IMG/VR virus record: IMGVR_UViG_3300033073_001635
Span: 1-64,000 of that record
Reading direction: 5' to 3' (one strand)
Source of the DNA: a virus
Lineage: Duplodnaviria > Caudoviricetes
Length of the DNA stretch: 64,000 nucleotides
Shown: positions 6,248 through 15,986 of the stretch, in pieces
Position numbering within the stretch: the first letter of the stretch is position 1
Layout of the letters: each line of letters begins with the position of its first letter
The notes under the pieces: generated by a model
What the model was told of the DNA's origin: nothing
Databases searched by the model: none
What the model saw: the letters and a program-made list of their open reading frames with translations, nothing else
Translations under genes and position numbers: made by a program

Positions 6248-7855
6248 ATGTTTGATATAAAAAAATGGTTATTAGATGAGATAAAAAAATATGTATCTGA
6301 TGAAAGAGTAGAACAAGTAGATTATGATTTCTTAATGTATGAAATTTCTACTTTATCTATAGATCAATTAGACTTATTATTTGGTGCGTGTTTAATGCAC
6401 GACGACAATCACAATAGAATTAAATTTAAAGAAAATCCTCACAACTCTATTTTACTTTATGTAACTGAGTGTACTGATGAATTTGATTTTGTTAAAGCTA
6501 GATCTAATATGATTAATGGTAGCGCGCCAGACGTAGACATTGATCATGACGCTTTAGATAGAGAAAAAGCAATTGAGTGGTGTGTAGATTATTGGGGTAG
6601 AGATAATGTAGCAAATATTATCACTCACGGCACTTTTAAACCAAAATCATTAGCTAGATCTTATTATCGCATTACTGAAGGTAATATGGATGATCTAGAT
6701 GACTTGCTAAAAAAAATTCCGCCACCTAAATTTGGTAAAGAATCTACTCTTACTGAAATTCTAGATTTAAATCCAGATTTAAAAGAAGAACCTAAATATG
6801 AAAAGTTTTTAGACTTTGCGTCTAAGATTGAGGATATGGTTTCTACTTATGGCATTCATGCAGCCGGCGTTATTATATCTGATTTTCCAATTCACGATGT
6901 AATTCCATTATGGAAAAATGGTAAAGCAGATCGTATTACTCAATTTGATAAAGATGAATGCGAAGAACTTGGTTTACTTAAGTTTGACTTCTTAGGTATT
7001 GACTCTTTGTCAGTGATTAAAGAATGTACAAAATTAATTAAACAAGAAAAAGGTTTAGATATTGAACCTTATAAAATTCCAGATGGTGATAAACTTACTT
7101 ATGACCAAATGAATAAAGGGCATCTAACTGGTGTATTTCAAATGGAAACTTCTGGTATGGCAAAGAAACTTATTGTAGAATGCAAACCAGAATCTATTGA
7201 AGACTTAAGTGCTATTACAGCTTTAAATAGACCAGGTCCCCTGCAAGCTGGATTCGATATTCAATATATTACTAATAAAAAGAATAATTTTGCACCTATT
7301 GATTTACCAGAATCGCTAGCAGAAATATTGAAAGCATCTTATTGGACATTACTGTATCAAGAACAAGTGATGGAAATATGTTCTAAAATTGCAGGATTTA
7401 CTCCAAAAGAGGCAGATGACGTAAGACGTGCGATGGGAAAGAAAAAGCACGACGTACTTAATGCTTATAAAGAGCAATTTCTAAAAGGTGCAATTGATTC
7501 TAACAAATTAAGCAAAGAATATGCTGAAAAACTTTGGGAAGAACTAGTTGGTTTTGCAGATTATTGTTTATCTGGTGATACTAAAATAAAAACTAATTTA
7601 GGCGTACTTAGTATTCTAGAAATTAAAGAATTATTACTTAAAGATAAAGAAGTTTACGTTTACGATAGAGATTCAAAACTTTGCAAAGTAGTTAATTATT
7701 TTAATAAAGGAATCAAAGATGTGTATGAATTTACTTTTGAAAATCAACAAAGTATAACTTGTACTGATGATCATAAAATTTTAACTAAAAACTTTGATTT
7801 AGTAGAAATCAATAAAGTATACATAGAGAATATGTATATTTTTGGAAAGGAGTAG
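6248..7855 (+). CDS. dnaE: DNA polymerase III alpha, fragment B (catalytic palm, thumb, part of fingers) fused to the split-intein N-half
   Basis: PDVDID, GIHAAGVII, GLLKFDFLG, GVFQMET, ALNRPGP, LYQEQVM, RRAMGKK, then GFADY|CLSGDT. Confidence 0.95.
   Translation: MFDIKKWLLDEIKKYVSDERVEQVDYDFLMYEISTLSIDQLDLLFGACLMHDDNHNRIKFKENPHNSILLYVTECTDEFDFVKARSNMINGSAPDVDIDHDALDREKAIEWCVDYWGRDNVANIITHGTFKPKSLARSYYRITEGNMDDLDDLLKKIPPPKFGKESTLTEILDLNPDLKEEPKYEKFLDFASKIEDMVSTYGIHAAGVIISDFPIHDVIPLWKNGKADRITQFDKDECEELGLLKFDFLGIDSLSVIKECTKLIKQEKGLDIEPYKIPDGDKLTYDQMNKGHLTGVFQMETSGMAKKLIVECKPESIEDLSAITALNRPGPLQAGFDIQYITNKKNNFAPIDLPESLAEILKASYWTLLYQEQVMEICSKIAGFTPKEADDVRRAMGKKKHDVLNAYKEQFLKGAIDSNKLSKEYAEKLWEELVGFADYCLSGDTKIKTNLGVLSILEIKELLLKDKEVYVYDRDSKLCKVVNYFNKGIKDVYEFTFENQQSITCTDDHKILTKNFDLVEINKVYIENMYIFGKE
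7565..7852 (+). other. split intein N-half (IntN, 96 aa)
   Basis: Block A CLSGDTKI, N2 YFNKGIKDVYE and block B ITCTDDHKILT, followed by a stop codon. No endonuclease domain. Confidence 0.93.
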
Positions 7856-7857
7856 TT

Positions 7858-8280
7858 ATGGCTACAGGCGCAAATGTTAGAAAAACTAACTTTGATGTTA
7901 CTTCTATAAACAAAAATACTTTTGATACATTAATAAAAGAAAAAGATGGCAAATTATTTATCTCTGATAGTGTAAACGGAGATCAAGAATTAGTTATTGA
8001 TTCTTCTAATATCAATGTACAAGCTCAAGCCTGGAAAACTTATAATAAAATTCCAGTTGCACCAGTTGCAAATCCATATTCTTTTGTTAATCCTGAAAAT
8101 ATTAATAAAGAAAATAATAAATGGATGATTCGAATTCTTTTAAATGGATTAGAATTAGACTATAATGAAGTTATAGTCTCTAATGCAGATAAACGTACAA
8201 TAACTTTAGACTTAGAAAACAATTTAACAATTGATCACACAGACGAATTAAAAGTCTGGTACGTAAAGGAACAGGTATAA
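7858..8280 (+). CDS. putative virion structural/decoration protein
   Basis: The C-terminal ILLNGLEL...DELKVWY resembles the C-terminal domain of the next gene (VYLNGLLL...DIIQVVY). Confidence 0.5.
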   Translation: MATGANVRKTNFDVTSINKNTFDTLIKEKDGKLFISDSVNGDQELVIDSSNINVQAQAWKTYNKIPVAPVANPYSFVNPENINKENNKWMIRILLNGLELDYNEVIVSNADKRTITLDLENNLTIDHTDELKVWYVKEQV

Positions 8281-8284
8281 TATT

Positions 8285-14980: not shown

Positions 14981-15399
14981 TGTCTTATTTACCTAACGCA
15001 CAAACTACTTATTTTCTAGATAATTCAACAACTACAAATGCTCTTGGAAGTATTGTTTCAAGTCCTTTTCAAAGAAGTGTCTTTATGCCTTGTTTTCATA
15101 ATATAAACAAAACTCATATCGCAAGTGATTCAATTATTCATATATTAGCAAGAGCTATAAACGATTCTGATGGAAATGCTGTACTTGGTCGCATTAGTTT
15201 GTCTCCTTCTCCTTATTTAAATAATTCGAAAATAGGGACTAGTATATCTCACAAATTGTCAATTGTAATGTTACCAAATACAGTACTTACATATCAAAAT
15301 CAGCCTACACAAATTGATAGTGCAATTTTAGATACAGGCGATTTAATAATGGTTGATAATCTTAATGTACTTGTAATTTCTTGTGGAGCAATATCATGA
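14980..15399 (+). CDS. putative fibre head (MSYL start)
   Basis: TAATG overlap with the previous gene; beta-rich composition. Confidence 0.5.
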   Translation: MSYLPNAQTTYFLDNSTTTNALGSIVSSPFQRSVFMPCFHNINKTHIASDSIIHILARAINDSDGNAVLGRISLSPSPYLNNSKIGTSISHKLSIVMLPNTVLTYQNQPTQIDSAILDTGDLIMVDNLNVLVISCGAIS

Positions 15400-15875
15400 G
15401 TTTTCAACCTATTCCATATCTTGATTGTCATATTTGTGAAATTGAAATTCTTGAAACTTTAAATATTTCATCTAACACTATACCAGTTAATCTAGGTTCA
15501 ATTCTTGTAGATACGGGTGGACAAATTAGTGTGACAAACAACTATATTACTTTTCCAGCAAATATGGAATTTTTTGTAAAAGCAAATATTGTAGGTCGCG
15601 CTGCTACAACTACTGGTGTAACAGGTTGTAATCCTACATTTTTAGATTCTTCAAATGTTGTTTTAGATTATCAAGCAATTGGTCAAGCAGTTGCAAGAGG
15701 TGGTGGCGTGTGGTTTTCATCTGTAGATTGTTTTATGATGTTATTTTCTTCAACATCATCTCGTAGTGCAAGGCTCTCAATTGGTAACGTAAGTGTAGCT
15801 CAAGCAATTAATATTGAATACAATAGCGCAACAAGTTATATTCCAAATTCAACAATTACAATTTTATATAAATAA
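15396..15875 (+). CDS. putative fibre head, C1q/BclA-CTD-like (MSFQ start)
   Basis: Likely start ATG 15396 (ATGA overlap, GGAG SD). TIPVNLGSILVDTGGQISVTNNYITFPANMEFFV pattern. Confidence 0.5.
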   Translation: MSFQPIPYLDCHICEIEILETLNISSNTIPVNLGSILVDTGGQISVTNNYITFPANMEFFVKANIVGRAATTTGVTGCNPTFLDSSNVVLDYQAIGQAVARGGGVWFSSVDCFMMLFSSTSSRSARLSIGNVSVAQAINIEYNSATSYIPNSTITILYK

Positions 15876-15878
15876 ATT

Positions 15879-15986
15879 ATGCAAATAAAATCAAAAACTT
15901 TTATAGGTCAACAACCTGTATATGATATTAGTGTTGATTCGCCACATCATGACTTTCAATTAGAAAATGGTGTAGTCGTTTCAAAT
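15879..15986 (+). other. split intein C-half (IntC, 36 aa)
   Basis: MQIKSKTFIGQQPVYDISVDSPHHDFQLENGVVVSN: blocks F and G, terminal Asn, +1 Cys. Confidence 0.93.

Follow-up and report, generated by a model that had tools for sequence, protein, structure and literature searches.

The first 64,000 nucleotides of IMG/VR virus record IMGVR_UViG_3300033073_001635 (hereafter, the window) probably encode a naturally split intein of class 1 that is functional and interrupts a phage's sole replicative polymerase, with an old and plastic island of other genes lying between the two intein halves. The viral contig to which the window belongs is 113,340 bp long, a linear, metagenome-assembled sequence with a G+C content of 27.7% and an estimated completeness of 69%. 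The polymerase is of the DnaE type and is encoded by three genes, referred to here as pieces A, B and C. The split intein lies at the B/C break only: its N-terminal half (IntN) closes the open reading frame (ORF) of piece B, and its C-terminal half (IntC) opens the ORF of piece C (Table 1).

The coordinates, lengths and sequences of IntN, IntC and the gap between them (7856-15878) agreed with the original prediction, which was made from the letters of the window and a list of their ORFs. The junction in the window reads GFADY-..-CFNKAHS (hyphens in such motifs mark the insertion point), with the block A Cys directly following the N-extein at position 7565. All of the residues used in class-1 splicing are present, including Cys1, TxxH, the block-F Asp, the terminal Asn, and Cys+1. 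In phmmer searches against all PDB chains, IntN matched 7qil (1.3e-6) and the Npu chains 4lx3_A and 4qfq_A (5e-5), and IntC matched 5ol7 (about 2e-5) and the Npu chains 4lx3_B and 4qfq_B (1e-4). The top solved-structure matches for both halves were thus cyanobacterial DnaE split inteins, for which the comparison structures were those of Ssp PCC6803 and Npu (PDB 4lx3, 4qfq, 4kl5, 1zd7 and 7qil), and both halves appear recognizable far beyond chance. A predicted resemblance of IntC to that of Npu in length and penultimate Ser was borne out, as 4lx3_B has 36 amino acids (aa), ends in ..IASN, and aligned with the window IntC end to end.

Kinship with the cyanobacterial inteins was examined at the level of the clade as well as the window. 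The IntN of a clade relative, L015, matched Npu and 7qil with E-values of about 1e-20 to 1e-21, compared with 3.5e-5 for the highest-scoring non-DnaE intein. Protein P0203, a cyanobacterial-type DnaE-N with the junction KFAEY-CLAYETE, has an IntN that matched Npu chains at 1e-47; when compared with a set of 129 IntNs, it was most similar to those of the phage clade (36-47% identity). Intein-free dnaE loci from cyanobacterial metagenome-assembled genomes (MAGs) read KFAEYCFNKSHS, and the Npu chains in the PDB keep the CFN extein residues. Because the junction, the Npu and 7qil matches, the kinship of P0203 and the intein-free cyanobacterial KFAEYCFNKSHS all agree, we place the insertion at the cyanobacterial PolIII-alpha point a (site a), as had originally been proposed. 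The uninterrupted dnaE loci reading KFAEYCFNKSHS are those of L039, L041, L053 and L055 (Microcoleaceae/Oscillatoriales MAGs), and therefore not every cyanobacterial dnaE copy bears the split intein. The kinship appears clear at the clade level, and the window IntN itself is seemingly nearer to cyanobacterial DnaE inteins than to others only among solved structures. In a tree of the 129 IntN sequences, most of the site-a inteins grouped together, with the cyanobacterial type nested among those of phages; since support was only 0.55-0.62, we claim no direction of transfer.

The same arrangement is widespread. Searches with piece C recovered 2,692 homologous proteins (E<=1e-10), with Tara Oceans samples among their sources, and an IntC-like leader (mostly 33-38 aa, a few longer) preceded CFN in 120/120 of the top homologs. 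These 120 also all carried [S/H/A]N-CFN, and the block-F Asp region was likewise kept; in alignment A1, positions V14, Y15, D16, N36 and C37 were invariant. Among the clade loci in which both halves were paired, every catalytic residue (Cys1, TxxH, block-F Asp, terminal Asn and Cys+1) was kept in 12/12, with TxxH in the forms TDDH (window), TEDH, TKEH, TIDH, TPEH, TSDH and TKNH. Across the clade IntN measures 96-115 aa and IntC 35-38 aa, and identity between IntNs drops to about 30%. The split layout, in which the IntN-bearing B gene precedes the IntC gene and both share one strand, was found in at least 14 independent related contigs from different metagenomes and pipelines (L003, L004, L009, L012/13, L015/25, L017-L022, L026, G001-G003 and L037; IMG/VR plus one GenBank contig), two of which are complete genomes, about 161 kb long and bounded by direct terminal repeats (DTR). 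The distance between the halves ranges from about 2.1 kb (L019), 2.8 kb (L020), 3.4 kb (L021/22), 3.9 kb (L017) and 5.1 kb (L018), through 7.7 kb (L009 and L012/13), 7.9 kb (L037), 8.0 kb (window), 8.2 kb (L015/25) and 8.4 kb (L026), to 9.1 kb (L003), 9.3 kb (L004), 11.5 kb (G001), 12.2 kb (G002) and 13.6 kb (G003). The clade consists of widespread uncultured marine myoviruses of about 160 kb, and megablast and tblastn searches of 50,697 deposited phage genomes returned nothing nearer than approximately 37% identity. A large and abundant group of phages thus appears to hold the same site-a allele as cyanobacteria. One clade member, L023, is free of the intein and has a single B-C ORF reading ..LVGFADYCFNKAHS.., in which the junction is exactly the product predicted for splicing (GFADYCFNKAH). 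More distant phages have an undivided DnaE.

Polymerase genes of family A or family B were not detectable in the genome of the window, about 31% of which is missing from the contig, or in three complete relatives, whereas the control genes were detected. With no other polymerase family detected, the phage would therefore depend on reconstitution of DnaE.

Modeled on the known class-1 mechanism, reconstitution would begin with the separate translation of B-IntN and IntC-C, whose intein halves would associate and fold into one HINT domain. An N-S acyl shift at Cys1 would be followed by transfer of the N-extein to Cys+1 and by cyclization of Asn36, and an S-N shift would then leave a native peptide bond in ..GFADY-CFNKAH.., giving an approximately 836-aa palm-fingers-HhH-OB chain. 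This spliced B-C chain would act with the separately encoded piece A, which carries the PHP domain and the start of the palm and would dock without an intein.

Several observations weigh against a working intein in the window. The halves each have a net charge (K+R-D-E) of -2, in agreement with the near-neutrality originally predicted, and so they lack the acidic-IntN/basic-IntC complementarity that is thought to drive the fast assembly of Npu; splicing kinetics could be poor because of this. The Pfam model PF14890 matched IntN only below threshold (E 4e-4, 20.5 bits versus a gathering cut-off of 35.8 bits). The window IntN is also a divergent outlier of its group, reaching even 7qil only at 1.3e-6, and FastTree placed it apart from other site-a IntNs, with weak support (0.55-0.62). 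Scans for sigma-70 promoters and terminators gave chance-level results, with no readable timing signal for B, C or the gap genes, and psbA was not found in five genomes. Chance-like matches to RPA70 at 3e-5 fell between the DnaE intein matches in the PDB search, and many non-DnaE inteins scored as well as DnaE inteins when the window IntN was compared with representatives of 1.8 billion proteins. As to charge, near-neutral halves occur clade-wide (IntN -9 to +4, IntC -5 to +2, with the polarity reversed in some members), and assembly may therefore lean less on electrostatics; electrostatic pairing is a property of Npu and Ssp, not a definition of the family.

The sub-threshold Pfam score and near-neutral charges would also fit an explanation that we regard as improbable, in which the halves form a splicing-dead docking module and B and C are held together non-covalently. 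The A/B break of the same polymerase functions without an intein, indicating that non-covalent assembly is used in this DnaE. However, all of the residues involved in the chemistry are kept across more than 120 sequences while neighboring positions vary freely, and a mere clasp would not require Cys1, the TxxH His, the terminal Asn and Cys+1 together. Because the catalytic residues never change and DnaE is the sole polymerase, an active trans-splicing intein appears the better explanation than a decayed docking remnant.

In a model drawn from the original prediction, a virion/lysis cassette of about 8 kb was recently inserted as a unit between an existing Shine-Dalgarno (SD) sequence and the start of IntC, the halves having been adjacent or only recently split. 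The strings on which this was based are present: an SD-like AAAGGAG lies at the IntN stop (AAAGGAG-TAG-TTATG), TTATG occurs at both borders, and the island runs exactly from the IntN stop to the start of IntC. However, TTATG cannot mark an insertion scar, because it precedes 4 of the 16 listed gene starts in this A+T-rich genome. Relatives with adjacent halves were looked for and none was found; the smallest gap, at 2.1 kb, already contains fiber-like genes, homologs of the 523-aa fiber gene recur in the gaps of distant members, and gap content has been replaced piecemeal, not as one unit. Since the split state is kept across IntN divergence to about 30% identity and across gaps of 2.1-13.6 kb, it is not recent, and insertion of a ready-made cassette is very improbable. 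An assembly artifact, with the halves contiguous or on separate genomes and the cassette mis-joined, could be suspected in a linear metagenome contig of 69% estimated completeness, but its probability is negligible given the same gene order in the independent contigs described above, including the two DTR-closed genomes, and the collinearity of the window with L037 (GenBank CAYOWH010000001, 158 kb, from another project) across the whole interval.

Comparison with two close relatives indicated how the island has changed under what we take to be a long-standing split intein. L003 shares 98.6% identity with the window in the B extein, 66% in IntN and 77% in the C extein, and its IntC agrees at 35 of 36 residues; the first two gap genes are 45-52% identical and the endolysin 96%, and DNA homology returns within at most 9 nt of the IntC ATG. 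Relative to L037, B (100%), IntN (99%) and IntC (100%) are nearly unchanged, whereas identity falls to 64-68% in the last three genes before IntC, which are the most variable part of the gap. This mosaicism suggests that the gap is an old plastic island whose content is swapped piecemeal. The left and right arms of the genome differ in history, and re-assorted IntN and IntC variants would therefore have to stay compatible.

Once the intein was split, the half-genes would be independent translation units, and the junction could absorb or exchange DNA without cost to the polymerase. A gene divided by a split intein tolerates any distance between its halves, and the island can thus gather fiber-like (probable host-recognition) and lysis genes; this, we infer, is why it sits between the halves. 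The locus may once have passed through a fractured-gene stage with an endonuclease, of which no trace remains. It is conceivable, although we consider it doubtful, that the intein-bounded gap is a selected "swap slot", in which the slow-evolving borders of an essential polymerase would serve as fixed homology arms for co-infecting phages, and fiber, C1q-like head and lysis genes would be exchanged without risk to the polymerase, the split intein permitting their placement. As a corollary, phages, with their far greater site-a diversity, may be the reservoir for the cyanobacterial DnaE split intein.

Table 1. Position of the split intein, the three polymerase pieces and the intervening genes within the window
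Feature	Position	Strand	Evidence and remarks
DnaE piece A (PHP domain and first ~100 palm positions; end ..RFLNEGRGATP..)	3940..5199	+	PF02811 1e-45; PF07733 positions 1-102, 7e-36; phrog_405 positions 36-442 of 1190
Three small ORFs in the A/B break	5215..6188	+	AdoMet-decarboxylase-like, 120 aa (PF02675 8e-13); membrane-like, 114 aa; 84 aa
DnaE piece B, N-extein	6248..7564	+	PF07733 positions 100-260; PF17657 1e-46; catalytic PDVDID motif and fingers; end ..LVGFADY
IntN, 96 aa	7565..7852	+	Cys1 (CLSGDT); block B TDDH; stop TAG 7853-7855; ORF 6248-7855; PDB phmmer
140-aa ORF	7858..8280	+	SD within IntN 3' end; kept in L003, L004 and L037; Atlas: viral hypothetical clusters only, <=0.89
523-aa fiber-like virion protein (MAQIKGKQI..)	8285..9856	+	PHROG tail-fiber, head-decoration and virion-structural families, about 1e-34 to 1e-14
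97-aa ORF, weak helix-turn-helix signal, not nuclease	9861..10154	+	Sigma70_r4 0.009, HTH_7 0.09, both sub-cut-off
Lysis-like cluster	10212..11754	+	132-aa hydrophobic/coiled-coil; 47-aa Cys-rich; 207-aa with hydrophobic segment; M15 peptidase
M15 peptidase	11347-11754	+	PF08291 2e-18; phrog_894 (endolysin) 5e-30
Fiber module 1: 262-aa stalk-like (internal MTQIKAKQIGD), then Ser/Thr/Asn-rich 225, 134 and 126 aa	11742..13996	+	Paralogy to 523-aa and 160-aa proteins
Fiber module 2: 160-aa stalk-like (MAQIKSKQIGD), then 162, 139 and 164 aa	13997..15875	+	Paralogy; ESM Atlas fold
IntC, 36 aa	15879..15986	+	Block F VYDI; end VVSN; ORF 15879-17180; ATG 3 nt past stop of preceding gene; PDB phmmer
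DnaE piece C, C-extein (Cys+1 CFNKAHS.., then HhH and OB-fold domains)	15987..17180	+	PF14579 3e-28; PF01336 7e-8; phrog_405 positions 790-1075

The gap holds 15 co-oriented ORFs packed tightly into positions 7858-15875, with intergenic distances of 0-12 nt and a single exception of 57 nt. The probable virion and lysis roles of these genes agree with the original prediction, and are indicated by the PHROG matches of the 523-aa protein, the M15 peptidase, and the C1q/BclA-C-like fold of the 162-aa protein (ESM Atlas, TM 0.69-0.73 to C1q/BclA_C/collagen clusters). Homologs of the 523-aa protein were located within the gaps of L006, L008, L010, L011, L017 and L028. The stalk-like proteins share N-termini of the form MAQIK.KQI.D and are followed by small beta-rich proteins, and fiber module 1 is 75-98% identical to its counterpart in L037. 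Putative holin/spanin roles can be assigned to proteins of the lysis cluster. That cluster includes a 47-aa acidic peptide with 11 Cys (10603-10746), encoded between the hydrophobic proteins and the M15 peptidase and kept in L003, L004 and L037 (47-96% identity). Searches of the 15 gap ORFs against Pfam (to E 5) and PHROGs, and a motif scan of all six frames, returned no homing endonuclease, whether of the HNH, GIY-YIG, LAGLIDADG, Vsr or another type, in agreement with what had been predicted. The small gaps of L017-L021 likewise had no endonuclease, and contained fiber-like and lectin-like genes instead. The N-termini at 8285 (MAQIKGKQI), 11760 (MTQIKAKQI) and 13997 (MAQIKSKQI) resemble the start of IntC at 15879 (MQIKSKTF). 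IntC and the 160-aa gene have CAAATAAAATC in common at the DNA level, and sister sub-clades start MKI[IV]SKEY; this resemblance may have been left by recombination at the right border, or may be a chance similarity in an A-rich genome.

Class-1 split inteins inserted at site a are well known as a kind. All known site-a inteins were stated to be split and cyanobacterial by Novikova et al. (2016, PMC4760082), and they have been treated as a purely cyanobacterial group derived from one ancient breaking event (PMC2677866, PMC4760082). The intein in the window resembles the cyanobacterial DnaE split inteins in its junction, FA[D/E]Y-CFNK[A/S]HS, in the position of the split, with an IntN of about 100 aa (canonical 100-123) and an IntC of 35-36 aa, in its class-1 residues, with Ser rather than His before the terminal Asn, and in its specific sequence kinship at the clade level. 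It differs in that the phage polymerase is itself encoded by three genes, and in that only 2-14 kb of a tightly packed, single-stranded run of genes separates the halves, whereas the cyanobacterial halves occupy distant chromosomal loci. In addition, the halves are near-neutral (-2/-2) instead of acidic and basic, and the phage IntNs diverge far more among themselves (about 30-47% identity).

Fractured genes, described from phage-like metagenomic loci, have split inteins with a free-standing homing endonuclease between the halves, and include three DnaE loci that use integration points other than the cyanobacterial one (Dassa et al. 2009, PMC2677866). Like these, the system described here consists of an essential phage-type replication gene with a split intein, the halves being close together on the same strand. 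Unlike these, it uses the cyanobacterial point, and in the window the gap contains 15 fiber-like and lysis-type genes in place of an endonuclease. No publication on phage site-a alleles was found in the literature searched, which is not proof that they are unpublished. With respect to that literature, the phage host, the large divergent phage population of the site-a allele, and the variable fiber/lysis island in the endonuclease's place are new.

The presence of the site-a allele in phages reopens the question of its origin, that is, whether it passed from phage to cyanobacterium or the reverse. The Ssp, Npu and engineered Cfa DnaE split inteins are workhorses of protein ligation, and in the phages there are natural variants by the hundred, strongly diverged (about 30-47% identity) and in many cases charge-neutral, in which orthogonality, speed and extein tolerance could be explored. 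In L009 and L012 the polarity is opposite to that of Npu (IntN +3, IntC -4 or -5), making them possible candidates for natural orthogonal pairs. A failure of splicing would leave the phage with no polymerase, and the locus is hence a clean natural test of neutral split inteins. The architecture is also of interest, in that the gene for an essential enzyme encloses the phage's most variable, probably host-range-determining genes.

The other break in the polymerase, between pieces A and B, spans about 1 kb in the window. The longest ORF of piece A begins at TTG 3892, and ATG 3940 (MSFVHLHVHTEYS) is the likelier start. No intein was detected at the A/B break, and because Rfam gave zero matches across positions 3000-18500, we conclude that the whole interval, the break included, is free of any intron that Rfam can detect. 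Approximately the first 91 aa of piece B are a degenerate copy of the palm segment that closes piece A (window 4890-6550), as seen in ..NSILLYVTECTDEFDF..INGSAP of piece B versus ..GSLVAWALKITEVDPV..GRGATP of piece A. The intein-free relatives L023 and L024 are also split between A and B, with A/B gaps of 0.46-2.4 kb, and the A/B split predates the intein.

Among longer proteins, cis inteins were sought at the same site and were found only at a neighboring insertion point, GFNK-SHS, four residues downstream and with Ser at +1. The inteins at this second point in other DnaE genes (P0174, P0250, P0262, P0292 and P0295) are mostly cis-splicing and comprise mini-inteins, inteins with LAGLIDADG domains and one or more that are split. 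The cis mini-inteins there (for example P0292, P0295, annotated as a Desulfotomaculum sp. MAG, and P0174) resemble the present intein in their class-1 type, in their location at a finger hot spot four residues away, and in 30-37% identity to the window IntN; they differ in insertion point, in Ser +1, and in being contiguous (152-439 aa), some with LAGLIDADG. The sole inspected protein with a cis intein at an FAxY-type position was P0262 (Ser +1), in which both sites are occupied by inteins although just four residues separate them.

Mobile elements appear to be active near the locus. Gene B of L037, the nearest relative, contains a group I intron (518-1702; RF00028, 62.8 bits, E 4e-15) with a 298-aa LAGLIDADG ORF, inserted at RRAMG-KKK, 42 codons upstream of IntN, and the window represents the intron-less allele. 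L024 has an interruption carrying an ORF with a LAGLIDADG motif, and in G002 gene B is cut near residue 326. At 1544-2849 of the window, a 209-aa ORF matches only the N-terminal half of UvsX/RecA-like recombinases, and the 205-aa ORF that comes next matches an HNH endonuclease; the recombinase gene may thus have been interrupted by a further mobile element. The DnaE IntN is the only intein-model match in the window's genome.

A candidate late promoter motif, TATAAATA, was rejected, as its 18 occurrences, versus 21.7 expected, represent no enrichment, and the copy at 15867 before IntC is no evidence of a promoter. No tRNAs were found. The MAG labels "uncultured Bacteriovoracaceae bacterium" and "Magnetovibrio sp." attached to the phage contigs L037 and L038 were likewise set aside as host evidence, since these contigs are probably mis-binned and the labels unreliable; both are near-complete genomes of clade phages deposited as bacterial MAG contigs. 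Finally, a complete relative, G005, has a bona fide cis intein elsewhere in its genome (G005:C1:56996-58372; PF14890, 46 bits, above the cut-off) within a 1393-aa ORF.

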